This document shows positions 20,783 through 63,979 of a stretch of DNA of 64,000 nucleotides, piece by piece (position 1 is the stretch's first letter; each line of letters begins with the position of its first letter). The notes under the pieces are model-generated. The model did not search any database. It saw nothing but the letters and a program-made list of their open reading frames with translations, and was not told where the DNA came from. The translations under genes were made by a program, and so were the position numbers. Location of the stretch: IMG/VR virus record IMGVR_UViG_3300032007_000054, positions 26,167 through 90,166 of that record. One strand, given 5' to 3'. The DNA comes from a virus (taxonomy: Duplodnaviria; Caudoviricetes).

Positions 20783-20785
20783 CCT

Positions 20786-21857: not shown

Positions 21858-21920
21858 TTCAAAATGGTTCTAAAAGCCTCGTATATACGAGGTTTATTGT
21901 TTTTTTATCGGAGGTATTGT

Positions 21921-22118: not shown

Positions 22119-22189
22119 TTCAAAATTATTCTAAAAGCCTCATACTTACGAGGCTTATTGTTTTTTATTGGTACTAAATGGAGGTGAAT

Positions 22190-22741: not shown

Positions 22742-22747
22742 TTCAAA

Positions 22748-23071: not shown

Positions 23072-23077
23072 TTCAAA

Positions 23078-24115: not shown

Positions 24116-24335
24116 TTTGATAGATATAATGCCGAATAGAAAATCAAATAGCGGAGATCTTAGAACATTCATAACCTATTATTATGAATCAGATGAATAT
24201 GATCGTGATCGAGAAGACGGTTTATATGTTATTGAAATTAAAGTATTTGATGGATCGAGAATCATTCGAAGAGAAAGAATCGTAACTGATAATTTACACA
24301 TTTTTGAAGACACAAATCCAGATAAGGAAGCATAA
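24105..24335 (+). CDS. Hypothetical protein
   Basis: ATG 24105 overlapping previous stop. Confidence 0.6.
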   Translation: MKDSLIDIMPNRKSNSGDLRTFITYYYESDEYDRDREDGLYVIEIKVFDGSRIIRRERIVTDNLHIFEDTNPDKEA

Positions 24336-24766
24336 TGAAAAATTTTGTTAAACGCATAATTACTTTTGTTCACGGTATCATTGCCGGTGTATTACTGTAT
24401 AAATTCTTTACAAATTCGGTTTTACTAAATTATCTGAAGAAAGACTTTGAACGTAAACCGGTATATCGTGTCCGACCTTATTATACAGACTATTCTTTTT
24501 ATAAAACACGATCCAACGATTTTGATATTTTTGACTTTGGTTTTGGAACCAGATCTGATGCAGAGCAAGTATTAAATCAAATCAAAATGGAAATAGAAAA
24601 AAATGGATTATGTACTATTGGAAGATTAAAAGAGCTTTCCGGGATCGAATCGTTATGGTCTGATCAACATAAAGGATGGACAGAATTATCTGAAAATGTG
24701 CGTGTTAGTCGATGCCGTGATGGTAAATATTATATTGAACTTCCGGATCCGGAAGAATTAGATTAA
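24335..24766 (+). CDS. Membrane-anchored protein, paralog of 30359
   Basis: N-terminal TM; FGTRSDAEQVL..GWTEL..RDGKYYIELPDP. Confidence 0.65.
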   Translation: MKNFVKRIITFVHGIIAGVLLYKFFTNSVLLNYLKKDFERKPVYRVRPYYTDYSFYKTRSNDFDIFDFGFGTRSDAEQVLNQIKMEIEKNGLCTIGRLKELSGIESLWSDQHKGWTELSENVRVSRCRDGKYYIELPDPEELD

Positions 24767-24829
24767 TCATACGCAGATGACGATAAAGAATGATAAATTT
24801 GTATCGTAAAAAATTCCCGGAGGGAGAAA

Positions 24830-25081
24830 ATGGAGAAAATCTTTGAATTTCTGGCACCTCATGCCAATTTGTTGTTTTTCCTGCTCGGTGTACTGATCAC
24901 AGTGATCATCTGGCTGATTATTCCGGCGAAGAAGCCGCATCCGATCGGGGACTTGTTCGTGATTCACTATCCGAATGGGTTTAAAGAGCTGTATCTTAGA
25001 CTTGAGGATGATATTGATACGTTTGAAAACGATCCAAAAGTTTGTTTCAATGTACTAATCGATGATAGGACGGATGAATGA
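24830..25081 (+). CDS. Membrane-anchored hypothetical protein
   Basis: TM LLFFLLGVLITVIIWLII; GGAGGG RBS. Confidence 0.65.
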   Translation: MEKIFEFLAPHANLLFFLLGVLITVIIWLIIPAKKPHPIGDLFVIHYPNGFKELYLRLEDDIDTFENDPKVCFNVLIDDRTDE

Positions 25082-25305
25082 GCGGTATTGGGTTTATTGA
25101 AGTGCATAGAGTTTTTGATAATAAAGAAATACTTATCAATGTCGCATATATTACTGATGTTCTAAGCGAGATACCCTTTGCTCATGATAATATAAATGCG
25201 ACTCTTATTGAGACCCTGGATAATCAAGTTTGGAGAGTTATTGAAACTTATGATGAAATCAAGGAATTGATTAGTCAAAGCAATAGGATCTTCAAAATGG
25301 AGTAA
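25078..25305 (+). CDS. FlbD-like small protein (tentative)
   Basis: FIEV..EILIN..I..V..TLI..V.ETYDEIKELI pattern. Confidence 0.35.
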   Translation: MSGIGFIEVHRVFDNKEILINVAYITDVLSEIPFAHDNINATLIETLDNQVWRVIETYDEIKELISQSNRIFKME

Positions 25306-25380
25306 TCGCTAAATTTTCATTTCCTAAAATGGAGAGGCAAGGATGGCCTCTTTTTGTTTTTAAATTAGAAAGGAGTGAAA

Positions 25381-25848
25381 ATGGGAAAACCGAAGTTGAA
25401 AAATATGTCATTAGAAGAACTGGAAGAGCAGTTTGAAGATTTTGATGAAGAAATCGTCCAGGATGTTGAATTATGGGACGAAAAATATGTTGATAGCAGT
25501 GATATGCTGCTGAAGGAAATAAATGATCTTTCGAATGGTGAAGAAAGATCAAGAGCGATTAAGGATTTGCAGATAATGGAGCAGATCACAAACGAACGGA
25601 TCAAAGTTCGTAATGAAAATCGTAAAATGAAGCAAGAGCTGATCCTGAAAGAGGAAGAGCTCAAAAATCAGAAGAAAGCTAATCGATGGGGCATTTTAGC
25701 TCAAATCGGAGGAACGATTTTATCGTTCGTAGGCTATTCGATTCTGTTGCAGAGGCAGAATGAATTCGAAAGCGGAGACAGTTACTCGACAAATGGAAGT
25801 CGAGGATTGACTCAGAATATCTCTCACTTTGTTGGGAGAGGTAAATAG
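25381..25848 (+). CDS. Coiled-coil protein with C-terminal TM
   Basis: Promoter motif and leader hairpin at 25306-25345; hairpin terminator ~25857-25890. Confidence 0.7.
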   Translation: MGKPKLKNMSLEELEEQFEDFDEEIVQDVELWDEKYVDSSDMLLKEINDLSNGEERSRAIKDLQIMEQITNERIKVRNENRKMKQELILKEEELKNQKKANRWGILAQIGGTILSFVGYSILLQRQNEFESGDSYSTNGSRGLTQNISHFVGRGK

Positions 25849-25894
25849 TTGTAATCAAGGCTATGACTTTGTTCATAGCCTTTTATTTTTTATT

Positions 25895-26254
25895 ATGCGA
25901 TATCACTATGAGGAACCGGAAGGTCTGGCAAAACGCTATGGGCAGATCTATCGCTGTGATCACCCGATATATACCTGGTGCACATTATTTATAGTCGGAG
26001 AACGAGGACTGGCCGTGATCCGACAGTACTTTGATTCTGAGAAAAAAGTGACTTATTGGAGAGAACTTGATCGAAATCTGACAGCAGATATTTATCTGAA
26101 TGATGGGTTCGAAGAGTACTTTCAAAAACATGCAAAGCCTTGTAAGGACGGACTGTATCCTACAGTTACGGTCCGTCAGATCATGTGGGCACTGCGGATG
26201 AAGCCGCTGCCGAAAAAACGTTGGGAGACTGTCTTTGACAGAAAGGAGATCTAA
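25895..26254 (+). CDS. Hypothetical protein
   Basis: ATG 25895; TAATG coupling to next gene. Confidence 0.65.
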   Translation: MRYHYEEPEGLAKRYGQIYRCDHPIYTWCTLFIVGERGLAVIRQYFDSEKKVTYWRELDRNLTADIYLNDGFEEYFQKHAKPCKDGLYPTVTVRQIMWALRMKPLPKKRWETVFDRKEI

Positions 26255-26472
26255 TGCCGAATGTAATCACGGAATGTGAAATCAAGCGTTCAACTATTGA
26301 CCCGGCTGTTATGCTGATCAATGTCAAATATGATAATGATTCAAAATGGAATCTGCTGCGTACATATTTTCCGAATGAACTGAGTTTTCATCCAGATGAG
26401 TTTGTCGGCCTGACAGATACAGATGCATTGAATTTCTGTTGGGAGCGGGATCTTGAGTTTCTCAGGAGTTAA
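26254..26472 (+). CDS. Hypothetical protein
   Basis: YFPNELSF..DEFVGLT motif. Confidence 0.65.
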   Translation: MPNVITECEIKRSTIDPAVMLINVKYDNDSKWNLLRTYFPNELSFHPDEFVGLTDTDALNFCWERDLEFLRS

Positions 26473-26474
26473 GA

Positions 26475-26897
26475 ATGAAAGTATATGTATTACTGAATAC
26501 TGATGATGAAATTGTAAACATTTTTGACAGTGTAGAAGCAGCGGATGAAACGATCAGTACCGATGCCTTTTTTGATGGATGGTACAAAGTAATTGATGTA
26601 TATGGAGATATATATTACAAGAATGAGTGTTTGGGGCTCATGACCCTTAAGCCTTATGAACTTATAAATTTATCAGCAAAATCTGCAGATCAGAATCCAA
26701 TGTCATGGGATGAACTTATGGTCTGGAAAGGAAATCCGGTATGGATCGAAACCCCGAATAAGAAATACTGGACAATCGTTCTTAATTCCGGAAAGCTGGC
26801 TGATGGTTCAAAAATGTTTATGGATCATGAAGAGTTTTATCATGAAAAAGACAGGGGAAAAACCTGGGAGGCTTATAAGCAGAGAAGGAGTATATGA
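26475..26897 (+). CDS. Hypothetical protein
   Basis: C-terminal W.EL..GNPVWI..W..Y module paralogous to 57917. Confidence 0.65.
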   Translation: MKVYVLLNTDDEIVNIFDSVEAADETISTDAFFDGWYKVIDVYGDIYYKNECLGLMTLKPYELINLSAKSADQNPMSWDELMVWKGNPVWIETPNKKYWTIVLNSGKLADGSKMFMDHEEFYHEKDRGKTWEAYKQRRSI

Positions 26898-27217
26898 TGC
26901 ACTTAAAACCAGAAGATACAATTATTGTGACCAGACATCCGGGTATTGTGGAATGGCTGGAAAAACATTACAGTATTACCGGAACTGTAAAGCAGTCCGT
27001 AACAATCGAAGACATTAAAGGTAAACATATCATCGGGGAAGTCCCTGCTTATGGTGCACAGTATGCTTTTTGTGTTTCTGCAATCATCTGGCCGCATCCA
27101 TGGAAAGAATATGGTACCGGAACACTAACCTATGAAGATGTAGTTGCAATGGAACCGGAGCTGTTCACTTATGTGGTCGTTCCGGTCGTTGACACAGATC
27201 CTACAGACTACTACTAA
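26894..27217 (+). CDS. Csx16-like small Rossmann-fold protein (tentative)
   Basis: IVTRHPGIVEWL..DIKGKHIIGEVP resembles SRHPGA.EW..GD.V.G.LP of Csx16. Confidence 0.45.
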   Translation: MMHLKPEDTIIVTRHPGIVEWLEKHYSITGTVKQSVTIEDIKGKHIIGEVPAYGAQYAFCVSAIIWPHPWKEYGTGTLTYEDVVAMEPELFTYVVVPVVDTDPTDYY

Positions 27218-27292
27218 AAATCGCAAAATTTTCACCTCCTATAATGGAAGGACATAGAGGTCCTTTTGTGTTTTTTATTAAAAAGGAGGAAA

Positions 27293-27403
27293 ATGTTAGG
27301 TATAGTAGCATTGTTAGTGTTCGCCTATGTATGGGGCGATTTACGTGTTGCGCTGTTTATAGCGATTGGCTTCGCATTAGCGAAAGCCTTATTGAAGAAA
27401 TAA
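27293..27403 (+). CDS. 36-aa hydrophobic peptide in its own cassette
   Basis: Motif 27221, AAGGAGG-ATG, MLGIVALLVFAYVWGDLRVALFIAIGFALAKALLKK, terminator 27411. Confidence 0.7.
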   Translation: MLGIVALLVFAYVWGDLRVALFIAIGFALAKALLKK

Positions 27404-27461
27404 ATTAGTAAAAAGCCCGCATGGGCTTTTATTTTTTCAAAGACGGAAGGAAGGGAAACAA

Positions 27462-27827
27462 ATGAAAAAGTTATGGAGTAAGATAAAAAATCTGGCGAAG
27501 AAGTTCTGGGAGAAGCTTCAGGATGCATGCATCTGGATCGTCAAAATGGTGAAGAAACTGATCGAATGGTGCATGAATAATCAGGAGGTCGTATATTGCG
27601 GTGTATTTGCAGCATCATGCGCGAATACGATTTATAAGAAATATCGCAAGACAAAGTCTGAAAAAGAGCTGGAATTTCATCGGAATAACCTTTATGACCG
27701 CAGTATGGGGCATTACTGGCAGCTGAGGCGCAGACTTACCTCAGACGAAATGCGTGAATTGGAACAGCGGAAGTATTATGGCGAGAGCATGGGAGATATT
27801 CTGGAAAGTATGAAGGTGCTCGCATAG
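27462..27827 (+). CDS. Hypothetical protein
   Basis: Amphipathic N-terminus; YDRSMGHYWQLRRRLT motif. Confidence 0.7.
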   Translation: MKKLWSKIKNLAKKFWEKLQDACIWIVKMVKKLIEWCMNNQEVVYCGVFAASCANTIYKKYRKTKSEKELEFHRNNLYDRSMGHYWQLRRRLTSDEMRELEQRKYYGESMGDILESMKVLA

Positions 27828-27836
27828 GAGGATTTA

Positions 27837-28646
27837 ATGAATATTGCTAGAGCAGGAAAGTTCGCTTTACAGTTTATAAGGCGAAACTCTCCGATCATTC
27901 TAAGCGTCGCTGCCGGAATCGGATTGGCAGCGCTTTATATTTTAACGATTAAAGAAACAGAAGAAGTTGTCCATGAAATCGAAGAAGCGCCGGAAGAGGA
28001 GGTCCATAGCTTCAAAATGGTGAAAAAAACTGTCAAAATCATGGCACCTTCTTTTGTTGTTTTACTGCTGACGATGTTCTGCATTGTACAGTCCTGCAGG
28101 ATCTCGCAGCATCGAATACGGGACCTTACTCAGTATTCAGCCATGCTGGCAGCAACTTTGAATCAGTATCGGCAGAAAAACCGGGAGATCATCGGACCGG
28201 ATGGTTCTGAAAATAATGACAAATTTATAATGTATGAAATCGCGTCTGAGAATATGCCGGATGAACTGCCTGATGATCCGGAAGATGGAATTCTGTGTGA
28301 ATTAATTGGGTATCCGCATTATTTTAAAGTTCCAAAACTTGAAAATATATATGCCGGATTTTTAAATGCAAATGAATATATGGAAACCGGCTGGGGATCT
28401 GTAGAGTTATCCAAGTTATTCAGATGGATCAATGCAATCCACTATGATGAAAAAGGTCATCGCTGTGGTATGGATGTTAATTATCTGCATTACGGATGGG
28501 AAACACACGATCTGTCAGATTGCGAGAAAGTAAGCGGATTATATCCATATATTGGCCGTATAACAGAGGACAGCGGTTTAGTTGTATATCTGATCGACGT
28601 CCCGGCTCCAAAACCGCTGGACGTAAGTTGGGAATATGGGATCTAA
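27837..28646 (+). CDS. DUF6353-like membrane/coiled-coil protein
   Basis: RRNSPIILSVAAGIG TM, second TM, coiled coil, C-terminal GW domain. Confidence 0.6.
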   Translation: MNIARAGKFALQFIRRNSPIILSVAAGIGLAALYILTIKETEEVVHEIEEAPEEEVHSFKMVKKTVKIMAPSFVVLLLTMFCIVQSCRISQHRIRDLTQYSAMLAATLNQYRQKNREIIGPDGSENNDKFIMYEIASENMPDELPDDPEDGILCELIGYPHYFKVPKLENIYAGFLNANEYMETGWGSVELSKLFRWINAIHYDEKGHRCGMDVNYLHYGWETHDLSDCEKVSGLYPYIGRITEDSGLVVYLIDVPAPKPLDVSWEYGI

Positions 28647-28986
28647 TTATTATTCTGTACGAAATTACCTGTACATTCCGAGAGATGTTCAGTGCGCTCT
28701 GGATATTCTGGAGATGTATAAAAAGAATGTTCTTGATAAGGAATTAACAAGTCATCCGTTAAGCTTTCAGCAGATGATGAATTTGTCCGAACAAAAAGTC
28801 GGTATTGACGAGTTAAAAGATTATCTGATCGACCGGGCCTATGAAGCGCCGATCCATATTCTGATCGCAAACTTTGTCTATAAGATGAATATGAATGCTG
28901 CTTTATCCGGTAATTCTCCTGAGTTGTACCGGCTGTATTGCAATATGCGCGATGCAGCTGAAGATGTAGAATTCCATTTTTTGTAA
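28636..28986 (+). CDS. Hypothetical protein
   Basis: ORF in operon. Confidence 0.65.
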   Translation: MGSNYYSVRNYLYIPRDVQCALDILEMYKKNVLDKELTSHPLSFQQMMNLSEQKVGIDELKDYLIDRAYEAPIHILIANFVYKMNMNAALSGNSPELYRLYCNMRDAAEDVEFHFL

Positions 28987-29008
28987 AAACGAAAGGAAAC
29001 AAATCAAA

Positions 29009-29794
29009 ATGGGAATTAATTTTATGAAGGATGCTGTGAAGGGCCTGTGTACCTTTGCCAAGGTAAATGCAGGTCCGATCTCGACAGTAGCGGTGATCCT
29101 TGGTATGGTCACCGCTTTTTCTTTAGCTGCCAAAGCAGGAAAGGAAGCGGCTGAAGATATTGAGGAAGCGAAGGAAGAGCTGGAGGTTGAGGAATTAACA
29201 CTCGGCGAAAAAGTAAAGTTTACCTGGAAGCGGTTTTTACCGGCAGTGTTTGTGCTGCTGCTGACCATTACAAGCTTCGTATATACGACCCGGCAGATGG
29301 CAAAGCGATATGCTGCACTGTCGGCAGCTTATAGTTTGACTGAAAGTTATCTGAAAGATTACATGGATGCAACAAAAGAAGCTGCCGGTCAAAAGAAAGA
29401 GCAAACGATTCGTGATGCTGCAAATGTAAAACAGGCAAAAAAGTATCCGATCGAACGTGGTGTTATTGAAACCGGGTACGGTGATGATCTGTTTTTTGAT
29501 GAAGTGATCACAACTAGATATTTCAGATCAACACTGGATCACGTACAAGCAGCAGAAAAAGAGCTTGCCAGTATTTATCAGGCTGAAGATTCGATTACCA
29601 TGGATGATTACACATTCCGGATGGGACTTGGTACACGATCAAATAACGGAAATAATCTTGGTTGGAAAAAATCAGGAAAGCTTGATGAAACAAATAAGTT
29701 CTTCCTGTATTATACAGCAGCGATCAGTGACAGCGGAGAACCGTATATCATTATCAGTCAGGGCCCAAACCGTATGACTGATCTTATGCGGTAG
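29009..29794 (+). CDS. DUF6353-like membrane/coiled-coil protein
   Basis: Same architecture; KRYAALSAAYSL, FFDEV..RYFRST, LGW. Confidence 0.65.
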   Translation: MGINFMKDAVKGLCTFAKVNAGPISTVAVILGMVTAFSLAAKAGKEAAEDIEEAKEELEVEELTLGEKVKFTWKRFLPAVFVLLLTITSFVYTTRQMAKRYAALSAAYSLTESYLKDYMDATKEAAGQKKEQTIRDAANVKQAKKYPIERGVIETGYGDDLFFDEVITTRYFRSTLDHVQAAEKELASIYQAEDSITMDDYTFRMGLGTRSNNGNNLGWKKSGKLDETNKFFLYYTAAISDSGEPYIIISQGPNRMTDLMR

Positions 29795-29889
29795 ACTCGC
29801 GAAAAAAACATGGCCTTTAAAGAGAGACAAACAGTCTCTCTTTAATTTTGTTAGTTATTGTTATGTGTAAAAAAGAAAGGAAACAAATT

Positions 29890-45135: not shown

Positions 45136-45180
45136 AACATAATCACTATAATTTCATGTCCTCTAATGGAGGAAAATAAA

Positions 45181-45282
45181 ATGAAAAAGATATTTGGTTT
45201 TATTGGAGGATTATTGTTTACTATAGCCTTTGTCTGGGCTATGTGCGAATGCGCCGGGATACTTCCCGGAATACTATTTTGA
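45181..45282 (+). CDS. 33-aa hydrophobic peptide in its own cassette
   Basis: Motif ~45153, GGAGG RBS, MKKIFGFIGGLLFTIAFVWAMCECAGILPGILF, hairpin GAGGG/CCCTC. Confidence 0.6.
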   Translation: MKKIFGFIGGLLFTIAFVWAMCECAGILPGILF

Positions 45283-45378
45283 GGGTTCTTACCCTCTTTA
45301 TTTTCTCCCAAGATTTGCATGTTCTATAACGGAGGAGACAAGGATGATCTTCTCTTAGTTGTTAGTAGAAAGGAAAAA

Positions 45379-45627
45379 ATGGAAGAAGTAATGTATATTA
45401 TGTTTATTGTCGCTTGTGTGACGTTTGTTGTTAAAACAATTTATGAATGGGTCGATCAGGCCCGTTACAAACACGAAAGGGAAATTCGTGAAGCTGAAAA
45501 TATAGCGGGATGTAAAGCTCGCTGGCAGGCGCGGCTGGAAGCGCTGGAAAAAGTCCAGAAAGATAATGAAGAAAGATCAAGAATTAATGAAACCCTGCAT
45601 GGGTTTGGTGATATTTTAGATCGATAA
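45379..45627 (+). CDS. Membrane-anchored cassette protein
   Basis: Head-repeat variant at 45307-45360; terminator at 45634. Confidence 0.7.
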   Translation: MEEVMYIMFIVACVTFVVKTIYEWVDQARYKHEREIREAENIAGCKARWQARLEALEKVQKDNEERSRINETLHGFGDILDR

Positions 45628-45673
45628 AAATTTAAGCCCGCAAGGGCTTTTCTTTTTTAACGAAGGGAAACAA

Positions 45674-45976
45674 ATGGAAAACAAGTTTAATCCTGTAAAG
45701 TTTGCAGCGTCTGTTATTGTTTTCGGGATCATCGGCGGTGTTACGGCTTTGATCAACGGCATTCAGAAAAAACAACAGGAAAAGAAATTCGGCTGGATGT
45801 CTGCCTGGAAAGTAGATCCGGATGACCTTCCTGCCGGGTCCAATATCTACCTGGATGTGGATAAGCAGAAACTGCTTGATTATGATACTGGTGAGATCCT
45901 GGAAGATTTTTCTCAGTATGAAGACCCGAAGAAAGCGATGACAGAGTTCATGAACCTGATGTGGAGTTTTAAATGA
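45674..45976 (+). CDS. Membrane-anchored hypothetical protein
   Basis: N-terminal TM. Confidence 0.65.
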   Translation: MENKFNPVKFAASVIVFGIIGGVTALINGIQKKQQEKKFGWMSAWKVDPDDLPAGSNIYLDVDKQKLLDYDTGEILEDFSQYEDPKKAMTEFMNLMWSFK

Positions 45977-46260
45977 CAGAACTTGGAAAAGTATTAAAAG
46001 GTTTAAAGTGTTGTAAAGGGCTGAACGGTGAGCAGCCTGTTCCTTTTACAAGCAATCGAAAATGTACGGAATGCCCTTATATGGAAGTCCCTGCTCTTCT
46101 TACCGGAGAACTGCCCAGATACTATTGTCATCATACAAACCTGATGCAGGATACGATTGATATTTTGACCGGGTATGTAAAAGCCAACATCCATCAGGAG
46201 AAGCGGCTTAAAGATCAGCAGAACTGGTTCGATTCATGGAGCGACTGCAATTACTTATGA
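45973..46260 (+). CDS. Cys-rich hypothetical protein
   Basis: KGLKCC..CTECPY..C. Confidence 0.65.
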   Translation: MTELGKVLKGLKCCKGLNGEQPVPFTSNRKCTECPYMEVPALLTGELPRYYCHHTNLMQDTIDILTGYVKANIHQEKRLKDQQNWFDSWSDCNYL

Positions 46261-46469
46261 AAAAGATTACAAATCAAGTTGCTTATAAATGCGAAGTATG
46301 CGGACGTATTTATGATGAAGAAGAAAAAGCGCATAAATGCGAAGATTCACATGTTCTGCAATTACCAATGGCAAAAATGATTGATACCGATCTTCCGGGT
46401 ACATATCCGCAGTTCATTACTATGAAATTCTTTGATGGTAAATTGTTGATTTATAGGATTCTTGAATGA
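46257..46469 (+). CDS. Small zinc-finger-like protein
   Basis: YKCEVCGRIY..A.KCE..H. Confidence 0.65.
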   Translation: MKKITNQVAYKCEVCGRIYDEEEKAHKCEDSHVLQLPMAKMIDTDLPGTYPQFITMKFFDGKLLIYRILE

Positions 46470-46702
46470 AAAAAGTATATATTGTGTTAAAGGAACAAAA
46501 TTTTGAAAACAATGCTGAAGTCGTGATCGACAAAGTTTTCAAAGCAAGGCATTATGCCGATGAATACATCGCATCGCAGATCGAGCAGGATCCCAAAATG
46601 AGGGACCGCTATTATATTATCGGCCGAAAAGTAGAGCCTGAAAAGTTCTTTATCGGGCGGCATAATCTGGAAGAAAAAATGGACGGTTCTATTCTAGATT
46701 AG
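46466..46702 (+). CDS. Hypothetical protein
   Basis: MKKVYIV..VIDKVF pattern. Confidence 0.6.
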   Translation: MKKVYIVLKEQNFENNAEVVIDKVFKARHYADEYIASQIEQDPKMRDRYYIIGRKVEPEKFFIGRHNLEEKMDGSILD

Positions 46703-46777
46703 ATATTTCTATTCTAGGTTAGATCTGCGAGGACCTTAAAGAAAGCAATCGCAATTAAAACATAGCCTTTAATAGAA

Positions 46778-46890
46778 AGGATAGTAAAGTCTCGTAAGGA
46801 CGCTCGGTGGGTTTGCACCCTGATCGAGAGGACTCGTATTAGTGCAAAGGATACGATGACGAAAGAAGGAATTACGAATTTACTTATCCT
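46778..46890 (+). ncRNA. Candidate structured RNA with loop-loop complementarity
   Basis: Promoter motif at 46749; long closing stem; two hairpins carrying complementary TTTGCAC and GTGCAAA; no ORF. Confidence 0.55.
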
Positions 46891-46972
46891 GAAGCTTTTT
46901 CATTTCGTGTAATTTACATGGCCTCTAATGAAAGAGTACGTTGTAAGCGGCTCTAAATTATTAGGAGGAAAA

Positions 46973-47143
46973 ATGGAAAAGAAAATTGATTTATCAATGT
47001 ACCCGAAAGGGTCTGTTGTAAAAATGAACGCAAAAGGCGTTCAGTATGTCGAAATCCCGTACGATCCAAAGTACGAGGAAAAATTTAAAGGGGCTTCGTC
47101 CCCGAAAGACATCTGGACTAGAGTCCAGTTACGCACTTATTAG
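46973..47143 (+). CDS. Small cassette protein
   Basis: Motif 46904, AGGAGG RBS, terminator 47152. Confidence 0.7.
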   Translation: MEKKIDLSMYPKGSVVKMNAKGVQYVEIPYDPKYEEKFKGASSPKDIWTRVQLRTY

Positions 47144-47207
47144 TGCAAAATGAGCCCGCATGGGCTCTTTATTTTTACATCTCCTTTTACGAGAAAGGAG
47201 GACCATT

Positions 47208-47381
47208 ATGGTCATTTATATCGTAAAAGATTTGTATAACATTATCGGCTTATACGCCGATGAAGAAAAAGCCTGCAATAAGGCGTTCGAAACAAACAAA
47301 TTTCGGAATTCACCGGATGGTGAAGATCTATTAGAAAAGTTTGGCCTGGCCTTTGTGTATCAAAGACCGGTCGTTGAATAA
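47208..47381 (+). CDS. Small cassette protein
   Basis: Degenerate motif 47173, AAGGAGG RBS, terminator 47381. Confidence 0.7.
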   Translation: MVIYIVKDLYNIIGLYADEEKACNKAFETNKFRNSPDGEDLLEKFGLAFVYQRPVVE

Positions 47382-47443
47382 GCCCGCAAGGGCTCTTGTT
47401 TTTTGGTATACTTGGTGAATAGTGAAGGAGGCAAGAATGACTC

Positions 47444-47710
47444 ATGGATATTTGGTTGGCAGTTTTACTGATCATCCTCATAGGAGCCGGGTGCGGTTTC
47501 GGAGGGTATAAATACGGTTTGAAAAAAGGTGCAAAGAACCGTGAAGAAAAAATACTACAGGAATTTATGATGTATGTCCCGTTGGGACGGGTCGGATCCG
47601 TTGCTCAGGATCTGATCGAAAACGATGGATATTCCGAAAACTTTCCTATGCTGATCGTGGCGCCATCAAAGTATAACTATTTGGATGGGCCTGATCCGGA
47701 ACAGGATTGA
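47444..47710 (+). CDS. Membrane-anchored hypothetical protein
   Basis: N-terminal TM. Confidence 0.65.
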   Translation: MDIWLAVLLIILIGAGCGFGGYKYGLKKGAKNREEKILQEFMMYVPLGRVGSVAQDLIENDGYSENFPMLIVAPSKYNYLDGPDPEQD

Positions 47711-47777
47711 TATTTTAGCTCGTAAGTTCAAAGTCCACAATACGTGGGCTTTTTGTTTTTAAAACGAAAGGAAACAC

Positions 47778-48608
47778 ATGTCTATTATCTCTATGCTTGG
47801 CGGGGCTGAGGCCGGTACGGTAGAAGAACTGAATCAAAGACTGTCTGAGCTTTCAGAAAAGTTTGAAACAATTGCCGGAAATCTTAAAAATCTCGAAACT
47901 ATGACGGAAACCGTAAAACTTCGTGTTGAAGAATTAAGCAACAGTGTTGCATCCATCACCCATGAATGGAACGGCAGTGAAGAACAGGGAATGACAAAGC
48001 GCGTTGCCGATCTCGAACGGATGCAGAAGTACTTTCAGAGCTCCCATGGGAAAGCGCTGAATGATATTCACGACCTCAAGGTCGAACTGCATGGTCTTTA
48101 CAACCGTCAGACACCCCCTCCGGATGAGGAGCTTCAGCAGTCTGTCGATCGGAATCCGAAGAAAAAGGAATTGATCGATGTAGTACAGGAATCTGATTTC
48201 TCTCAATTTCGGAAACACAATCTTCTCAATACTCTTGAGAAGAATAATCTGACAACCTTTGAGAGTATCAAAGGAAAGACATTTGATGACCTTTGTGACA
48301 TCAAGGATATCGGTCCGGCATCAGCATCTCTTTTGGTCAAACTTCGTCAGAAGTATTACGGCGAAGTTGACAACGCCAAGATCATTCGGGAAAACATCCC
48401 GATGTACAGCATCCGTGATGTCGTTAAGGGCATGAAGCTCACGCAGGTCCAGAAGAGCCGGATCACCAATACTCTTTACAAGTATGGCGTAAATACATTA
48501 ACTGATCTTTCGGATCTTGAATATGAAGAGGTCTGTAAGATTCCGCATTTCGGCTCCGGTTCTGTGGCTGCCGTGAAACAGATCTACCAGAATTATATTT
48601 GGAGGTAA
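47778..48608 (+). CDS. Coiled-coil protein with two RNAP alphaCTD-like (HhH) domains
   Basis: LLNTLEKNNLTT..L.DIKDIGPAS and ITNTLYKYGVNTLTDL..V.KIPHFG.GS..VK. Confidence 0.6.
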   Translation: MSIISMLGGAEAGTVEELNQRLSELSEKFETIAGNLKNLETMTETVKLRVEELSNSVASITHEWNGSEEQGMTKRVADLERMQKYFQSSHGKALNDIHDLKVELHGLYNRQTPPPDEELQQSVDRNPKKKELIDVVQESDFSQFRKHNLLNTLEKNNLTTFESIKGKTFDDLCDIKDIGPASASLLVKLRQKYYGEVDNAKIIRENIPMYSIRDVVKGMKLTQVQKSRITNTLYKYGVNTLTDLSDLEYEEVCKIPHFGSGSVAAVKQIYQNYIWR

Positions 48609-48609
48609 T

Positions 48610-48915
48610 ATGAACATTACTCTGATTTGTGTTTTACTAGCCCTGTTTGCTGTAGATATTGTGTTGCTGAAGATGCTTGACAATTACAGAAAAGCATCAT
48701 TGTTAGATAATGAAATGCTGAAAAGAGCACAGAAGCGTATATCCTTATTGGAGGTGCTGCTTCTTCCAAAAGAAATGTGCTCCAGTGAACCTGATATTTA
48801 TTATCAGTCATACAACAAATGCTTTGACCAGGAATACAGAGATAAATTCTTTAATACCGTGGATAAAACACTGGAGAAAGCGAAAGAGTATGCCCCCGGT
48901 ACTGATCAATCTTAA
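48610..48915 (+). CDS. Membrane-anchored hypothetical protein
   Basis: GGAGGT RBS; N-terminal TM. Confidence 0.6.
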   Translation: MNITLICVLLALFAVDIVLLKMLDNYRKASLLDNEMLKRAQKRISLLEVLLLPKEMCSSEPDIYYQSYNKCFDQEYRDKFFNTVDKTLEKAKEYAPGTDQS

Positions 48916-49174
48916 TGCAGAGATCATCTGCAGAAAACTCGCTGATCTTGGGATCTGGCATGAAACGGAATGGATACCCGCAGACAATCTGTGGGTTCTT
49001 TTCTTTAAAACCTATGAAAACAAGGTTGAAGGATGCGCATTTAAGGTCAATGGATATTTTGCTCCGCTGCTCCTTGTACACTCCGGAACACTTAATGTTG
49101 AAGAAGGTTACATCTCTGTCGATAATGTGATCTCATTGATAAAGAATGCTTATTGTACAAAAGGAAAGAAATGA
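48890..49174 (+). CDS. Hypothetical protein
   Basis: ATG 48890. Confidence 0.5.
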   Translation: MPPVLINLNAEIICRKLADLGIWHETEWIPADNLWVLFFKTYENKVEGCAFKVNGYFAPLLLVHSGTLNVEEGYISVDNVISLIKNAYCTKGKK

Positions 49175-49398
49175 GTGAAATAACCTTAGTATTGTTTGTG
49201 CTGCTGTTTGTCACTGTGATATTTGTCATCTACTTCTTTCAGATCAGTGCAAGGATTGACAATCTCACAAAGAAGTATAACGATCTGCTTGAAGATTCTT
49301 ATCGGGATAATCTCCGCTATGCTAGTCAGTTTGATCATTTATACACAGCGGTTCGTGAACTTAGTAAAACATTTGAGGACTTGAATAAATATGAGTGA
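49171..49398 (+). CDS. Membrane-anchored coiled-coil protein
   Basis: N-terminal TM. Confidence 0.6.
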   Translation: MSEITLVLFVLLFVTVIFVIYFFQISARIDNLTKKYNDLLEDSYRDNLRYASQFDHLYTAVRELSKTFEDLNKYE

Positions 49399-49801
49399 AA
49401 CTAATATGTTTATTGCTATTTTCTTCGGCTTTGCCCTACTGATGATCGTGCTCTTTTATATTTTAATGAGCCGGCGCATTGATGAGATCAGCGAGAAGAT
49501 CATCAAATGGCAGTCTCTGCAGGCTGATTTTAATCAGACACAGAATGAGATCAATATCGAAATAAAGAATTCTTTTGATGCCGTCGACGCAGCATCAGTT
49601 ATGCTTACTGAAAAAGTGAATCATCTTGAAATAAATACTAAAGCTCAAGATAATCAAATCGGAATGATCAAAGATTCTCTTCAAAAAGTTTCCGCAGAAA
49701 CACCATCTGAACGATGTGATGCACTCGAAAAGAGATTCTCTGCCCTTAAGAAGCTTGTCGAGGATTATACCGAGATCCTCCTTGACCATGCAATGCAGTA
49801 A
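49391..49801 (+). CDS. Membrane-anchored coiled-coil protein
   Basis: N-terminal TM plus heptad pattern. Confidence 0.65.
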   Translation: MSETNMFIAIFFGFALLMIVLFYILMSRRIDEISEKIIKWQSLQADFNQTQNEINIEIKNSFDAVDAASVMLTEKVNHLEINTKAQDNQIGMIKDSLQKVSAETPSERCDALEKRFSALKKLVEDYTEILLDHAMQ

Positions 49802-49918
49802 TTGATATTTCCTCCGCGCTATAACAACTGCCATTTCTAACCATTTTGCCTCCTTTGAAAATAGTGTATGCCTCCGTATGGCGCGGGCGGAGGCTCTTTT
49901 TTAATTGAAAGGAAAATA

Positions 49919-50299
49919 ATGAAAGTAAACTGTCCCTTGTCTTATGATGAAAACGGCAACCTTGAAGTTCTGGTCTCTACCGGATTTGGAGCCGGATGGT
50001 CAACTTGGAACGCCTACGGGATAAATCTCGCGGTTGATAAACGGATCATCGATTTTTTCAAAGCTAATCTTGATCCATATGATCATCTTAATCAAACCGT
50101 AACCGACAGCAAGCTTAATGAGTTCATGCATTCAATTGGTTATGCTGGGAATTTCTATTTTGGTGGATTTTATGACTGTAGGATCCGAAAAGTTTCACCG
50201 GGAACAATGTTTAAGATCCGTGAATATGACGGAGCTGAAAGAATAGAAGTATTTGATGATTCAGATTGGCTTACTATAAAAAAGCAAGGCGAGCAATGA
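49919..50299 (+). CDS. Conserved phage protein
   Basis: VLVS.GFGAGWSTWN..F.I.EYDGAE.IE. Confidence 0.7.
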   Translation: MKVNCPLSYDENGNLEVLVSTGFGAGWSTWNAYGINLAVDKRIIDFFKANLDPYDHLNQTVTDSKLNEFMHSIGYAGNFYFGGFYDCRIRKVSPGTMFKIREYDGAERIEVFDDSDWLTIKKQGEQ

Positions 50300-50469
50300 A
50301 GATGTATGTCAAAAATACAGATGGTGAATTAAGAAAGATCGAAACCATAATACTTGGTGGCAAGATCTACACACCAGATGATATTTGTAAAATACAAGAA
50401 AACGGTACTGTAATAACAATGAAAGACGGTACGGTGTATAGGATTACTGATTATTATTCCGGGAGATGA
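50296..50469 (+). CDS. Hypothetical protein
   Basis: ATGA overlap. Confidence 0.55.
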   Translation: MKMYVKNTDGELRKIETIILGGKIYTPDDICKIQENGTVITMKDGTVYRITDYYSGR

Positions 50470-50735
50470 GAATAATGAAAGACTTCTTTAAAGGCTTTAT
50501 TGACTATCTGAAAAACTGGTGGGAAGGTATTGTCCTTGTCAGTATATATATGGTTATCCTAATTATGGTCATTCTATATACGATTGTCAGCGGAATTACC
50601 GGCAAAAGTAATGTACTTATAACAAGTCATATGTCGGTTGACTTTTTTCAAGGCATTGCAGATACAGTAAAAAAGTCCCGTGAAAAAAAGATCGATAAAG
50701 CAATCGCTGAATTAGAAAAGGAAGGAACGAAATGA
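50466..50735 (+). CDS. Membrane protein
   Basis: Central TM. Confidence 0.6.
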   Translation: MRIMKDFFKGFIDYLKNWWEGIVLVSIYMVILIMVILYTIVSGITGKSNVLITSHMSVDFFQGIADTVKKSREKKIDKAIAELEKEGTK

Positions 50736-50899
50736 ATAGATATTTGGCAAATTGGGTACGTGTCGGTAAAGGTCTCGGATGCATTCTGATGATGGTTCCC
50801 CTCGGGATCATCGGAGCATTGACAGATGGCATCCTTGGAAAAAACAGTTTTACGGTAACTGCTGAGAACAACAAGACCGGAGAGAAACATGTCTTTTGA
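50732..50899 (+). CDS. Small hypothetical protein (55 aa)
   Basis: Read manually; ATGA overlap, fills gap. Confidence 0.5.
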   Translation: MNRYLANWVRVGKGLGCILMMVPLGIIGALTDGILGKNSFTVTAENNKTGEKHVF

Positions 50900-51284
50900 T
50901 ATTGACTACTCCAAAAGTCCGCATGAGGTAGAAGCTACTTCATTAAATCGTGTAGTTACGAACGATTACACTTACACTATTGATACCGGAAAACTTTTTC
51001 ATGTTCCGCTTCCGAATGAAGAGCAGACAGCTGCAATGATGGGTGGGATGAAATGGTTCAAAACCGCAGAAGATGAACTTTGTCCAAATCCATCAGAAGT
51101 TCCGGTCGAGACAGCTCCTTCTTATATTCATGAGACGCATGATCATGATTCAGATGATGGTATGAGTGTCCATCTCAGTGTTGACGATGATGGAGAATTT
51201 GTATCGTATACAGTCCGCAATGTCAAAACTGTTGAAGAAGTACTTACAATCCTTGAGATGATGAAGCGCATCGTCTCGGATTGA
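50889..51284 (+). CDS. Acidic hypothetical protein
   Basis: ORF in operon. Confidence 0.6.
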   Translation: MSFDIDYSKSPHEVEATSLNRVVTNDYTYTIDTGKLFHVPLPNEEQTAAMMGGMKWFKTAEDELCPNPSEVPVETAPSYIHETHDHDSDDGMSVHLSVDDDGEFVSYTVRNVKTVEEVLTILEMMKRIVSD

Positions 51285-51295
51285 TATTTACCGCA

Positions 51296-51406
51296 GGCTT
51301 CCGAATACGTTAAAAGCACATACAGCAATCTAAAACATTTTAGAAGATCTAGGTTGACTACCGTCAGGGTTGTAAGTACACCCGTGCTTTGTTGTGTTCG
51401 GAAGCC
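51296..51406 (+). ncRNA. Candidate multibranch structured RNA
   Basis: 13-bp outer stem GGCTTCCGAATAC/GTGTTCGGAAGCC, 7-bp AAAGCAC/GTGCTTT, three inner hairpins, U-tract. Confidence 0.5.
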
Positions 51407-51432
51407 GTCTTTTATATTTTCAGGAGAACTTT

Positions 51433-51609
51433 ATGTTTGCAGTAAAGTATTACTATCGGACAAGCTTTATGTGCTATGCGGATAATGAGCGTGCCGGAGT
51501 TGTATGGACACCGCGCTTTGAAACAGTAGAGGAAGCTCTCGGTTATGCACAGGAGATGGTGCAGCAGTATGGTTATGATCCGAATCATCTGCGGGTGGTA
51601 AAAGTATGA
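51433..51609 (+). CDS. Small hypothetical protein
   Basis: AGGAG-ATG 51433. Confidence 0.6.
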   Translation: MFAVKYYYRTSFMCYADNERAGVVWTPRFETVEEALGYAQEMVQQYGYDPNHLRVVKV

Positions 51610-51887
51610 TATTACAGGAACAATACTATGAGGATTTGCTGGACTGTATCAACAGTACACCGGATACGGTATTCTGGCGGAAACTTGTCAGCAAGAAAAA
51701 ACTGCTGAAGGATGAAAAGCTTCTTGACCGTCTTTGGACAGAGTATCAAAAGATGATCGAGAACGGTGTTGATGAGAATTATGCTTATGCCTTTGCACTT
51801 GAGGAAGTTCTTGATATTCCATTGTCCAGATGGGAGAACATCTTTCACCGGTACATTGAAGGCAGACACAGTGAATTTTATGGATGA
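51606..51887 (+). CDS. Hypothetical protein
   Basis: ATGA overlap. Confidence 0.6.
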   Translation: MILQEQYYEDLLDCINSTPDTVFWRKLVSKKKLLKDEKLLDRLWTEYQKMIENGVDENYAYAFALEEVLDIPLSRWENIFHRYIEGRHSEFYG

Positions 51888-51893
51888 GGAAAA

Positions 51894-52214
51894 ATGGGAT
51901 TTTTTGAGATAATTGGTTTCGCAGCATGCATAGTAGGTGCAGTTCTTCTTGTCGCATGGATCATTACTTTCTTTGATGAATGGAATGATATTCAGTACAA
52001 AGTTAATACAGGGATCCCGAAAGACATTGCATTCCTGGATCATAAGATCAATGAATTGTCAAGTCAGGAAGATGAAGAGAATGATTGTGAAGAAGACAAT
52101 CTTGTCGCTTCTCTGAGTGAGCGTCTGGCCAATGCAGAGAGCCATATCCTGATGCTTGAGTATCAGAATGAGACGATCATGTCTGAACTTGATAATTTAA
52201 AGAAATCCGAATAA
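51894..52214 (+). CDS. Membrane-anchored coiled-coil protein
   Basis: N-terminal TM. Confidence 0.65.
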   Translation: MGFFEIIGFAACIVGAVLLVAWIITFFDEWNDIQYKVNTGIPKDIAFLDHKINELSSQEDEENDCEEDNLVASLSERLANAESHILMLEYQNETIMSELDNLKKSE

Positions 52215-52278
52215 CGATTTTTACATAGCCTCTAATGAAGAGAGAAAACTATATTAAGCTCTCTTCAATGGAGGAAAA

Positions 52279-59864: not shown

Positions 59865-60059
59865 GCGATTTTTAGTAATTGCGAAATTTACATGTCCTAT
59901 TATAGAGAGAAGGAGAATATATCATCGACTTCTCTTTTTTTTTGTAATGTGTGTTATTGGTATAAGCCGATTAGCATAGTTGTTCATTACACTCCTTTCT
60001 ACAAGGCCATGGATCATGTTAGGTTCATGGCCTCTTATTTTTTACAAAAAAGGATACAT

Positions 60060-60347
60060 ATGCTGGAACGAAATTTTCAAGCGCAGTTGATCAAGGAACT
60101 GAAAGAAACATTTCCGGGAGCAATTGTGCAAAAGATCGATTCTTACATTCAGGGATTTCCGGATGTGCTGATTTTATACAGAGACAAATGGGCTGCACTT
60201 GAATGCAAGAAATCTGAAAAAGAACGTAAACAACCTAACCAGGAATTTTATGTGGATCTGTTGAATGAAATGTCATTTTCCAGATTCGTATATCCCGGCA
60301 ACAAGGAGAAAGTTATCCATGAACTTCAACGATCATTCGAAGCTTGA
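60060..60347 (+). CDS. VRR-NUC-like nuclease/resolvase
   Basis: ERNFQ..IQGFPDV.ILY..WAALECK..QPNQE.YV. Confidence 0.8.
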   Translation: MLERNFQAQLIKELKETFPGAIVQKIDSYIQGFPDVLILYRDKWAALECKKSEKERKQPNQEFYVDLLNEMSFSRFVYPGNKEKVIHELQRSFEA

Positions 60348-60882
60348 AGGGATGCACGCATTTTTAGGTGCGAGCAAGTACCATTGGATCAACTATGATG
60401 AAGAAAAGCTCGTTGAAGTATATCGAAACGATCTGGCAAAAGAGCGCGGCACAATGCTGCATGATTTTGCTTCGCAGTGTATCAAGCTGAATCAGCGTCT
60501 TCCGAAATCTCAATTGACTTTGAATATGTTTGTGAATGACGCAATCGGTTACAAGATGAGATCCGAGCAGATCCTCTATTATTCGGAATTTTGCTTCGGC
60601 ACTGCTGATGCGATCTGTTTTCGGAAGAACATGCTGCGGATCCACGATCTTAAGACCGGAGCAACTCCGGCACATATGGAACAGCTCTATATTTATGCTG
60701 CGTTATTCTGTCTGGAGTATCACTACAATCCGCATGACATTGTGACTGAACTGCGAATTTATCAGAGCAACGAAGTAGTTATCGAAGAAGCTGATCCTGA
60801 GGATATTTCCGACATAATGGAAAAGATCAAAACTTTCGACAAAATTTTAAAAGAAATCCAGTATAAGGAGAGTGAGGCTTGA
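60319..60882 (+). CDS. PD-(D/E)XK (Cas4/RecB-like) exonuclease
   Basis: RGT.LH, FGTADAI..IHDLKTG, QLYIYA. Confidence 0.8.
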   Translation: MNFNDHSKLEGMHAFLGASKYHWINYDEEKLVEVYRNDLAKERGTMLHDFASQCIKLNQRLPKSQLTLNMFVNDAIGYKMRSEQILYYSEFCFGTADAICFRKNMLRIHDLKTGATPAHMEQLYIYAALFCLEYHYNPHDIVTELRIYQSNEVVIEEADPEDISDIMEKIKTFDKILKEIQYKESEA

Positions 60883-63629
60883 TGAACTATATTGCAGAAG
60901 ACATTATGCTGGCAATCGCCCGGCAACTGAACAATGATACTGCTAAGGATATTTTGATGCATTATGGCACCAAGCGGCACTCAGGTCGATATCCCTGGGG
61001 ATCCGGTGATGATCCTTATCAACATGAAATCGATTTTCGCAACCGTGTGATCAAACTGCGAAAAAAGGGATACGACGAAATCGAGATCGCAAGACGATGC
61101 GGTTACGAGACTACAAGCGAACTGCGAAGCGCACTGCGCAAAGCCAATAACGATATTCGGTCTTACCGGATGCATTGGGGTCAAGCATTATTGGATGATG
61201 GTTTGACTCCTGCTGAAGCATCCCGCCGAATGGGTATTTCTGATTCAACATTCCGGGCGATGATGAATGAGCAGACAATGGCCCGTGCGCAGAAAGCACA
61301 GCAGGTCGCAGATCATTTAAAGACAATTGTCGACGATAAAGGTCCGATCGATATCGGTACCGAAGTCAACCGTGAGCTAGGTATTTCCAAAGAGAAGCTC
61401 ATGCAGGCCGTCGATATTTTAAAAGAACAAGGTTATGAAGTTCGTGTCGGATCTATGCCTCAGGTAACTAATGAACATGGGCAGCGTACAACTTTGAAAG
61501 TATTGTGTCCTCCCGGAGCTCCGAAAAACCAGGCATATCGTTACGACGAAATTTCATCTCTGCAGGATTATGCCTCAGAATATTACTCTCATGACAATGG
61601 TGAAACTCTCTCCAAATTCCGATATCCCGAGAGCATGGATTCCAAGCGAATTTATTTCCGCTACGCTGAAGACGGCGGTGACAAGAAAGACGGATTAATT
61701 GAGATACGGAGAAATGTTCCTGATTTATCGCTGGGCAATTCCCGATATTCTCAGATCCGTGTTCTTGTCGATGGGAATAAATATATTAAAGGTATGGCAG
61801 CTTATTCTGATGAGATACCAGATGGTTACGATATGGTGGTGAATTCCCATTATTCTAAAGCCAGTGGTAAAGCACTTAAGGATATTAAGCCTGACCCGAC
61901 AAATCCTTTCGGTTCTTATATCGGTCCGAAAGGTCAAAGTGAATGGACAGATGAGAAGGGTAAAAAACATTTATCGTTAATTAATAAACGGGCAGATGAA
62001 GGTGACTGGAATGACTGGTCCAAATCTTTGCCTTCTCAATTTTTGTCCAAGCAAAATATGAAATTAATTAAAAATCAGCTGGATCTGTCGATCGCCGATA
62101 AATATGCTGAATATGAGGATATTTGTAATTTAACAAATCCGACTGTCAAGCGGCGATTATTAGAATCTTTTGCTGAAGACTGCGACGCAACATCCGTTCA
62201 TCTGGATGCTGCCGCTCTTCCGCGTCAGCGGTTCCAGGTTATTATTCCAATTTCCTCTTTGAAGGATACGGAAATTTATGCTCCGAATTTTAAAGACGGA
62301 GAACAGGTCGCTCTTGTGCGTTACCCTCATGGCGGTATTTTTGAGATCCCTGTCCTGAAGGTCAATAACAAGAACAAGGAAGGAATTTCCAGACTGACCA
62401 AGAATCCTACTGATGCTGTCGGTATTAATGCAGAAGTCGCCAAGCAATTATCCGGTGCGGACTTCGACGGCGATACCGTTATGGTGATCCCAATTTCCTC
62501 AAAAGTGAATATTTCTCACTCTAAATATTTGGATCAGTTGAAAGACTTCGATCCTCAGATGAAATATCCTGAAGTACCAGGCATGAAATATATGCAGCGT
62601 ACTGATGTGGAGATGGGGAAAATTACGAATTTAATCATGGACATGACCCTTGCAGGCGCTACCGATGATGAAGTGGCTCGTGCTGTCAAGCACTCTATGG
62701 TCGTCATCGATGCAAAGAAGCACAAGCTTAACTGGAAATTATCTGAAGAAGAGAATAAAATTCAGGAGCTTAAGGACAAATATCAGGGTCACTATGATGA
62801 AGACGGTCACTGGCGTCATGGTGCCGGTACGATCGTCACACGGTCTAAGAACCAGGTTCCTGTGACCAAGCGTCGTGGTGAATTTTCTATCGACGAGGAC
62901 ACAGGTAAGAAGATCTGGAAAGAGGCCTATGATGCGCACTATGTGGATAAGAATGGCAAGCCTAAGATCCGTACTCAGCAGAGTGTGCGCATGCTGGAGA
63001 CTGACGATCCATATTCTCTGGTTTCTGAAAGACAGCATCCTACTGAGATGCTCTATGCACGCTACGCTTCACAGCTGAAGGCTCTTGCCAATCAGGCACG
63101 TAAGGAGTACAAGTTCAACACTCCGAAGCTTGAGTACAGTCCTTCCGCTGCAAAGGTGTTCGAGGCTGAAGTGAAGTCTCTTAAGGAGAAGCTTGAGCGG
63201 TCTCGGTTGAATGCGCCTCGTGAACGTGAAGCACAACGCCGTGCTAACGTGATGCTTGAAGATGCTTTCCGTCGTGAGCCTTCTTTGCGTGATGACAAGA
63301 AGGAACGCGGTAAGCTGGCTCAGCAGTACCTTACTTCAGCCCGAATCGATGTCGGTGCTCAGCGGTATAAGATCGATATCGAACCTTCTGAGTGGGCAGC
63401 GATCCAGGCTGGAGCTATTTCTGACAATTTCCTGAAGCAAATATTAGATGCTACGGATACAAATACCATTCGGGAATATGCTACTCCGCGCTCATCAAAT
63501 TCTTTGAGCAGTGCGAAGAAGACCCGTTTGCTGGCATTGAACCGTTCCGGGTATACGAATCAGGAAATTGCTGATGCCCTTAATGTACCGATTTCTACAG
63601 TACTCTATTATCTGAAGAACAAAGACTAA
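60879..63629 (+). CDS. Candidate single-subunit two-barrel RNA polymerase with HTH domains
   Basis: D271G..Q292IR..K304GM; R481YP; G526ADFDGD532; HTH motifs near both termini. Confidence 0.75.
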   Translation: MMNYIAEDIMLAIARQLNNDTAKDILMHYGTKRHSGRYPWGSGDDPYQHEIDFRNRVIKLRKKGYDEIEIARRCGYETTSELRSALRKANNDIRSYRMHWGQALLDDGLTPAEASRRMGISDSTFRAMMNEQTMARAQKAQQVADHLKTIVDDKGPIDIGTEVNRELGISKEKLMQAVDILKEQGYEVRVGSMPQVTNEHGQRTTLKVLCPPGAPKNQAYRYDEISSLQDYASEYYSHDNGETLSKFRYPESMDSKRIYFRYAEDGGDKKDGLIEIRRNVPDLSLGNSRYSQIRVLVDGNKYIKGMAAYSDEIPDGYDMVVNSHYSKASGKALKDIKPDPTNPFGSYIGPKGQSEWTDEKGKKHLSLINKRADEGDWNDWSKSLPSQFLSKQNMKLIKNQLDLSIADKYAEYEDICNLTNPTVKRRLLESFAEDCDATSVHLDAAALPRQRFQVIIPISSLKDTEIYAPNFKDGEQVALVRYPHGGIFEIPVLKVNNKNKEGISRLTKNPTDAVGINAEVAKQLSGADFDGDTVMVIPISSKVNISHSKYLDQLKDFDPQMKYPEVPGMKYMQRTDVEMGKITNLIMDMTLAGATDDEVARAVKHSMVVIDAKKHKLNWKLSEEENKIQELKDKYQGHYDEDGHWRHGAGTIVTRSKNQVPVTKRRGEFSIDEDTGKKIWKEAYDAHYVDKNGKPKIRTQQSVRMLETDDPYSLVSERQHPTEMLYARYASQLKALANQARKEYKFNTPKLEYSPSAAKVFEAEVKSLKEKLERSRLNAPREREAQRRANVMLEDAFRREPSLRDDKKERGKLAQQYLTSARIDVGAQRYKIDIEPSEWAAIQAGAISDNFLKQILDATDTNTIREYATPRSSNSLSSAKKTRLLALNRSGYTNQEIADALNVPISTVLYYLKNKD

Positions 63630-63652: not shown

Positions 63653-63979
63653 ATGGACAAGAATCAGTTCTGTTACTTGACTACTGTTGACAATCCATAC
63701 GACAAGATCGAAGACTACGACCAATGGTTGGGCTTTGACACTGAGATGGGTTACTATTCAGATGCGTACCTCGATCGCATTGCGAAGATCTCGCCGGCTA
63801 TGAGTGAGATCGAGAAGGAAAGAGAGTACGAAAGAGCGATCGATGAGATCATCAAGTACGACTTTCGTAACATCTACGTTAAGAAATATGGAAATAAGGA
63901 TGAGGAAATCATAAATGATGACCCCTCTCAATCTTTAGACGACATTTTAAACGAGATGGTATGGGGGGGCATTCGCTAA
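63653..63979 (+). CDS. Conserved phage protein
   Basis: LTTVDNPYD....WL.FD..GY; AAGGAG RBS. Confidence 0.65.
   Translation: MDKNQFCYLTTVDNPYDKIEDYDQWLGFDTEMGYYSDAYLDRIAKISPAMSEIEKEREYERAIDEIIKYDFRNIYVKKYGNKDEEIINDDPSQSLDDILNEMVWGGIR

Follow-up and report, generated by a model that had tools for sequence, protein, structure and literature searches.

A predicted single-chain two-barrel RNA polymerase of a rumen phage and a candidate 29-bp promoter for its family

The closest described system is the 1706 orf75 / PHROG 4291 family, whose 1706 protein was listed by Ruprich-Robert and Thuriaux (2010) as one of five YonO-like families (PMC2919709). A 2021 preprint described its terminal helix-turn-helix (HTH) domains, a match to RNA-dependent RNA polymerases (RdRPs) and the DxDGD motif, and considered it a possible signature gene (10.1101/842583). 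Our search of the openly available literature found no biochemical or bench study of the family. YonO of the Bacillus prophage SPbeta is also a one-chain DNA-dependent RNA polymerase (RNAP) with the eight universal residues of two-barrel enzymes and is placed beside the 1706 family in PMC2919709; by tblastn it appears to be a separate family, no YonO record being among the significant matches to the polymerase studied here. YonO transcribes late genes, and its promoter was left unresolved in PMC5467207. Thermus phage P23-45 gp64 and P74-26 gp62, as well as gp96, are likewise single-chain two-barrel RNAPs with a core of similar size, and the Thermus phage RNAPs transcribe early genes from phage-specific motifs. 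P23-45 has two such enzymes, with gp96 fused to the tape measure, whereas the clade studied here has one. The phage members that have been tested (YonO, P23-45 gp64, and gp96) transcribe DNA. The best structural matches over both barrels, at Z 16-17, are QDE-1 and RDR2, eukaryotic silencing enzymes with 12-16% identity to our polymerase and no promoter recognition. How a one-chain two-barrel polymerase recognizes a promoter without sigma or TFIIB is a question left open for YonO (PMC5467207), and it is directly testable in the present clade because of its about 240 cultured phage records, easy hosts, 100-kDa enzyme, and candidate promoter.

The window, meaning the whole stretch of 64,000 nucleotides that was analyzed, is part of a 90,166-bp linear phage genome with virion genes in the left arm and small genes and replication genes to the right. 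Relatives nearly identical to it were found in cattle-rumen assemblies and in a bovine gut metatranscriptome. A joined assembly carries 9 additional bases between both genome ends, which suggests a cos overhang. The polymerase gene is next to last in the genome. Its open reading frame (60879-63629, plus strand) is intact and open from a TTG for 916 aa; the start chosen by gene callers, and the likely one, is the ATG at 60882. This codon shares bases with the stop codon of the upstream exonuclease gene and yields a product of 915 aa. Genes for a VRR-Nuc-type endonuclease and a Cas4-like exonuclease (60060..60882, plus strand) are conserved neighbors upstream. Directly 3' lies a small conserved gene (63653..63979, plus strand; PHROG 4303), with which the genomes of the examined relatives end; it encodes a small acidic protein with about 2000 homologues, for which no fold or family name was found. 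A tyrosine integrase with an N-terminal zinc ribbon is encoded at 15742-16980, with no repressor identified adjoining it. The noncoding segment at 59090-59385 holds numerous TGGCCA repeats and A/T runs and resembles an origin of replication. The 10-mer TTCAAAATGG occurs 19 times in the genome, always on the plus strand, at five sites left of the window and between 679 and 35375 of the window, with none past 35375.

The polymerase (60879..63629) is a member of a family already predicted from sequence; what is new here is a candidate promoter with a predicted start site. It matches PHROG 4291 with 1081 bits over profile positions 6-908 of 909, and 249 phage records match it at full length (at least 80% cover), including Faecalibacterium phage Oengus, the Lactococcus 1706-like phages, and phages of Arthrobacter, Gordonia, Streptomyces, Rhodococcus, Microbacterium, and Curtobacterium. 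The family holds at least 8000 proteins at 90% clustering. Full-length orthologues (e.g., FP_oengus AUV56548) are 35-46% identical and share the domain order, the HTHs at both ends, and the location near the right genome end between the exonuclease and the small last gene; no difference exists at the family level. The counts of polymerase matches per host genus equal those of terminase matches, which indicates a core gene of the phage clade; the terminase itself is 71-79% identical to Oengus and actinophage members. The earlier note expected automatic annotation to yield only an HTH protein, as is true of most GenBank records, but RefSeq and PHROG use the name RNA-dependent RNA polymerase and the Oengus record has putative RNA polymerase. 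The same note spoke of a temperate phage. The integrase is present, but many relatives are lytic, and the polymerase is thus not peculiar to temperate phages. Compared with its clade, this phage is larger (90 kb), possesses the integrase and two alphaCTD-like genes, and departs from consensus in the HTH2 recognition helix and in several promoter copies. The alphaCTD-like (PF03118) matches, at 47778-48608 and 54200-54688, are present as previously proposed; they were rejected as core parts of the system because five complete, cultured relatives do not have them, and they may act on host transcription.

The catalytic motifs of the protein are found exactly where they had been reported, with GADFDGD at aa 526-532 (nt 62454-62474) and R481 47 aa ahead of D528. 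The eight universal two-barrel residues (PMC2919709), which were assigned in the polymerase by motif order, are conserved far above chance: D528, D530, D532, R481, P483, R294, and K304 occur in all 150 diverse homologues compared, and D271 in 147 of them. D271, R294, and K304 are the equivalents of D709, R738, and K743 of QDE-1 (PMC2919709). The AlphaFold model (pLDDT 86) bears out the two barrels that the earlier note wished to see modeled. Its best structural matches are QDE-1 (Z 17.1, rmsd 4.5, 377 residues aligned) and RDR2 (Z 17.4, rmsd 4.0, 349 aligned), and model residues 250-751 align with QDE-1 681-1198, covering both barrels. Thermus phage gp62 and gp64 follow (Z 13.7, rmsd 5.3, 364 aligned and Z 13.2, rmsd 4.5, 336 aligned, respectively) at 11-14% identity; that match spans residues 234-745 and leaves the HTH units outside. 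The core of about 500 aa is similar in size to these enzymes and thus not uniquely minimal, contrary to the initial description. The crAss virion RNAPs match only weakly. In the model, the first, beta-like double-psi barrel with D271, R294, and K304 lies at 61641..61853 (homologue alignment and structural match), and the second, beta-prime-like barrel with R481, P483, D528, D530, and D532 lies at 62211..62498 and aligns to Rpb1 from residue 442. The Pfam RdRP domain (PF05183) scored 19.4 bits against a gathering score of 23.8 (E 5e-4), below threshold; a PDB search with the single protein found nothing; and a PDB profile search returned only HTHs and nonsignificant DxDGD matches.

Two HTHs, one near the N terminus and one at the C terminus, had been recognized previously, and both are real; two further units had been missed, an HTH spanning about aa 53-92 and, at about 155-210, a winged helix. 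Pfam, model, and alignment together place HTH1 (aa 53-92), HTH2 (aa 95-135), and the winged helix (aa 155-210) at 61035..61508 and the C-terminal HTH (aa 875-914) at 63501..63620, all on the plus strand. As modeled, the protein is a single chain in which two double-psi barrels carry the complete catalytic set, with three HTH units on their N-terminal side and one on their C-terminal side; the recognition helices of all four units are conserved among homologues. Pfam detects HTH_23 at 104-126 and Sigma70_r4_2 at 890-912, the latter just over its cut-off (26.9 versus 25.7) and outscored by generic HTH families. The term sigma-like stands here for a generic HTH match. Pfam showed no match to a sigma region 2-like melting domain, and a fold search that used residues 1-250, modeled from the single sequence, had no match below E 0.001.

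The window contains 21 copies of a 29-bp motif, all on the plus strand and with fixed spacing, in agreement with the roughly 20 repeats counted before. TCGCA lies at -25, ACA at -14, and TATAAT at -6 to -1, followed by a G, so that the predicted +1 is the motif start plus 25. Fourteen copies (17015..29825) head small-gene cassettes and start at 17015, 17279, 18241, 18718, 19145, 19575, 20017, 20365, 21200, 21316, 21481, 25306, 27221, and 29797. Six further copies (45143..52240) start at 45143, 45306, 46749, 46905, 47166, and 52212, and the last (59879..59907; predicted +1 at 59904) is upstream of the nuclease-exonuclease-polymerase operon. When this genome was excluded from the matrix, 16 of the 21 copies were still recovered, and neither the minus strand nor the virion arm gave a match. 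The motif is also present in 1706, Oengus, Mudcat, DrGrey, and Tanis, phages of Firmicutes and Actinobacteria. In five complete genomes it heads small-gene cassettes and, with the exception of 1706, where no copy was detected ahead of the operon, also the polymerase operon at the equivalent position. The virion arms of all five have no copy, and the claim of a self-contained transcription system is unsupported for this reason. No late promoter was identified either, the left ends having only a cos-proximal element in common. This element is shared by 1706, Mudcat, DrGrey, and Tanis and in the present phage (L009:1-90) is followed by a hairpin and T-tract. Two terminator-like hairpins with T-tracts (59904-59944 and 60004-60043) separate the polymerase operon from the last motif copy, and Oengus, DrGrey, and Tanis also have a hairpin or T-tract 3' of the equivalent copy; attenuation is possible.

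The link between polymerase and motif suspected in the earlier note is now backed by co-occurrence and by start-site evidence. Among viruses chosen by the motif alone, the gene was present in 41 of 50 records, or 21 of 22 when only complete viruses are counted, and 596 Gb of bacterial genomes gave only 6 exact motif matches, with the polymerase gene in four of the five genomes checked. Such co-occurrence reflects shared descent and would apply to any core gene, which limits it as proof. Together these results make it probable that the polymerase is a phage DNA-dependent RNA polymerase that uses the 29-bp motif as its promoter. We infer the DNA template and the activity from the catalytic set and the tested phage relatives.

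The main competing explanation is that host sigma-A reads the motif, with TATAAT as its -10 box and a phage activator bound to the upstream boxes in the manner of T4 MotA, while the phage enzyme has targets elsewhere, e.g., the late genes. TATAAT is indeed the dominant hexamer (346 of 467 clade sites, in a set biased toward it by the search pattern) and a perfect sigma-A -10, and sigma-A numbering puts TCGCA near -30, which we take to be a position like that of the MotA box. The virion arm, devoid of motif copies, needs some promoter, and late genes are what YonO transcribes (PMC5467207). Two genome notes also interpret the motif as the -10 box of a sigma-70 promoter (PMC9671010, PMC10868162). 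In line with the initial description of a non-sigma70 motif, the 467 sites have no -35 box at 16-18 nt (2.36 matches versus 2.43 in the control) and an extended -10 TGn in only 9. Sigma-70 promoters show no excess near the polymerase gene (7 found versus 11.8 expected). Seven of the 21 copies here are without the A that sigma-A requires at -11; since the clade keeps this A in 441 of 467 sites, the argument that the hexamer breaks sigma-A rules is given little weight. The motif is also unchanged across host phyla, which speaks against a host reader.

The best discriminator between the two readings is the start site, as sigma-A starts about 7 nt beyond the hexamer. Of the 17 tRNA-like RNAs located 3' of the motif, which fall into about 7 distinct kinds, 14 have a closing stem whose first base is the +1 G, and most are then followed by a U-tract. 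One of them is encoded at 21506..21592 (plus strand), with its closing stem from the predicted +1 G and no Rfam match. Of 27 leader hairpins, 11 have their first base between -3 and +1, where about 2 would be expected; among 320 ribosome sites, 25 start within +1 to +6. The tRNA-like RNAs, 5' hairpins, and ribosome sites point to the G directly following TATAAT as the start, at odds with sigma-A: a start near +7 would cut the tRNA-like closing stems, the leader hairpins, and some of the ribosome sites. Processing of read-through RNA could mimic the +1 stems but leaves the abutment of motif and stem unaccounted for. On balance, we regard reading by sigma-A as unlikely. Such tRNA-like RNAs, with odd anticodon arms and a separate motif copy ahead of each, are frequent in the clade (L015, L024, L050, L085, L102, L107, L110, L121, and L122) and are possible decoys.

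In one sample of the bovine gut metatranscriptome, contigs near-identical to this phage start at +10 to +19 in 13 of the 16 pieces listed, whereas none of 16 contigs did so in two comparison runs. Four of the contigs have adapter remnants, and several end just ahead of terminator hairpins. As a weak hint, they suggest active promoters at the motifs; on the exact start and on the enzyme they are silent. The integrase and the cassette behind 27221 have no RNA cover and were left out of the evidence.

In the mechanism we favor, transcription of the nonvirion genes by the phage polymerase from the 29-bp promoter, starting at the following G, is well supported by the co-occurrence and start-site evidence. 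The polymerase would melt the TATAAT segment, initiate at the G, and transcribe early and middle genes. More tentatively, its HTHs would bind the two upstream boxes at their spacing of one helical turn, and with the boxes read by the enzyme's own HTHs no sigma factor would be needed. Equally tentatively, a few copies may be packed in the virion by an N-terminal tag and injected, where they would start early transcription, the polymerase's own operon included. A short phage-specific promoter abutting a purine-rich +1 is also the strategy of the T7, N4, and crAss-type systems, and N4 and crAss deliver their RNAP with the virion, as possibly here. T7 and N4 RNAPs have an unrelated right-hand fold, and crAss virion RNAPs are much larger. 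The two terminator-like hairpins before the operon, and 1706 having no detected copy there, speak against this mechanism, which leaves late transcription and restart from a prophage unaccounted for.

The polymerase may alternatively serve the motif with a required partner, which could be the product of the small downstream gene, some other phage protein, or a factor of the host, its HTHs alone having no specificity. The small gene is well conserved and follows the polymerase in the relatives examined, no region 2-like melting domain was detected, and the factor need of YonO was left open (PMC5467207). We consider a partner quite improbable, with four HTH units bearing conserved recognition helices already in the chain, alphaCTD-like genes that are not conserved, and a host factor that would have to fit across two phyla. 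That the enzyme is an RNA-dependent polymerase or other nucleotidyl transferase for RNA amplification or priming, as the RefSeq/PHROG name implies, is very improbable, for despite its top structural matches (QDE-1 and RDR2), the weak Pfam RdRP match, and the RNA-mediated role raised in PMC2919709, the name was given by homology alone, DNA is the template of phage enzymes that share the fold, and the HTHs and DNA motif point to double-stranded DNA.

The putative packaging tag is a conserved disordered segment at aa 22-48 (60942..61022, plus strand; pLDDT under 50) with the pattern acidic-x-L-x-H-x-G, found in 144 of 150 homologues. It resembles the DUF7211 N termini of three head-module proteins (L009:1985-2659, 4416-5183, and 5197-6234, one of them below the cut-off), which are candidate internal or ejection proteins. 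The pattern, which was chosen afterwards, occurs in 4 of 115 ORFs versus 0.13 expected, and the DUF7211 profile has no match to the polymerase tag. In 1706, orf7 and orf75 both have the tag and are both labelled structural; the same label is also given to two small genes that lie beyond the virion arm, and is weak for that reason. A tag common to the polymerase and head-module proteins hints at virion packaging.

If the favored mechanism is true, a core gene that mostly goes by HTH protein or RdRP gets a new name, and the published reading of the motif as a sigma-70 -10 box has to be revised. It would also offer a reason for the clade's move between Firmicutes and Actinobacteria and a possible orthogonal expression system for Gram-positive bacteria.

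The one complete motif-bearing virus without the polymerase gene is an unrelated phage with no proteins in common. This gut phage or prophage carries a cassette (L118:10834-11130, minus strand; G039, also L012 and L125-L131) of two tandem near-perfect motif copies, a ribosome site, a 72-aa orphan gene, and a terminator. The orphan protein has no Pfam, PADLOC, or usable Atlas match, and the cassette promoter has no plasmid match. The fullest version of our proposal, a factor-free, virion-delivered one-chain polymerase whose own HTHs find the 29-bp promoter in hosts of two phyla, with the promoter borrowed by an unrelated prophage as an infection sensor, is put forward tentatively, and we would sooner expect some part of it to fail than all of it to hold. 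The cassette is antisense and adjoins an HNH gene, and its cluster comprises 52 members that share this context. It may act as a trap or defense triggered by the invader's polymerase, or be a captured cassette.
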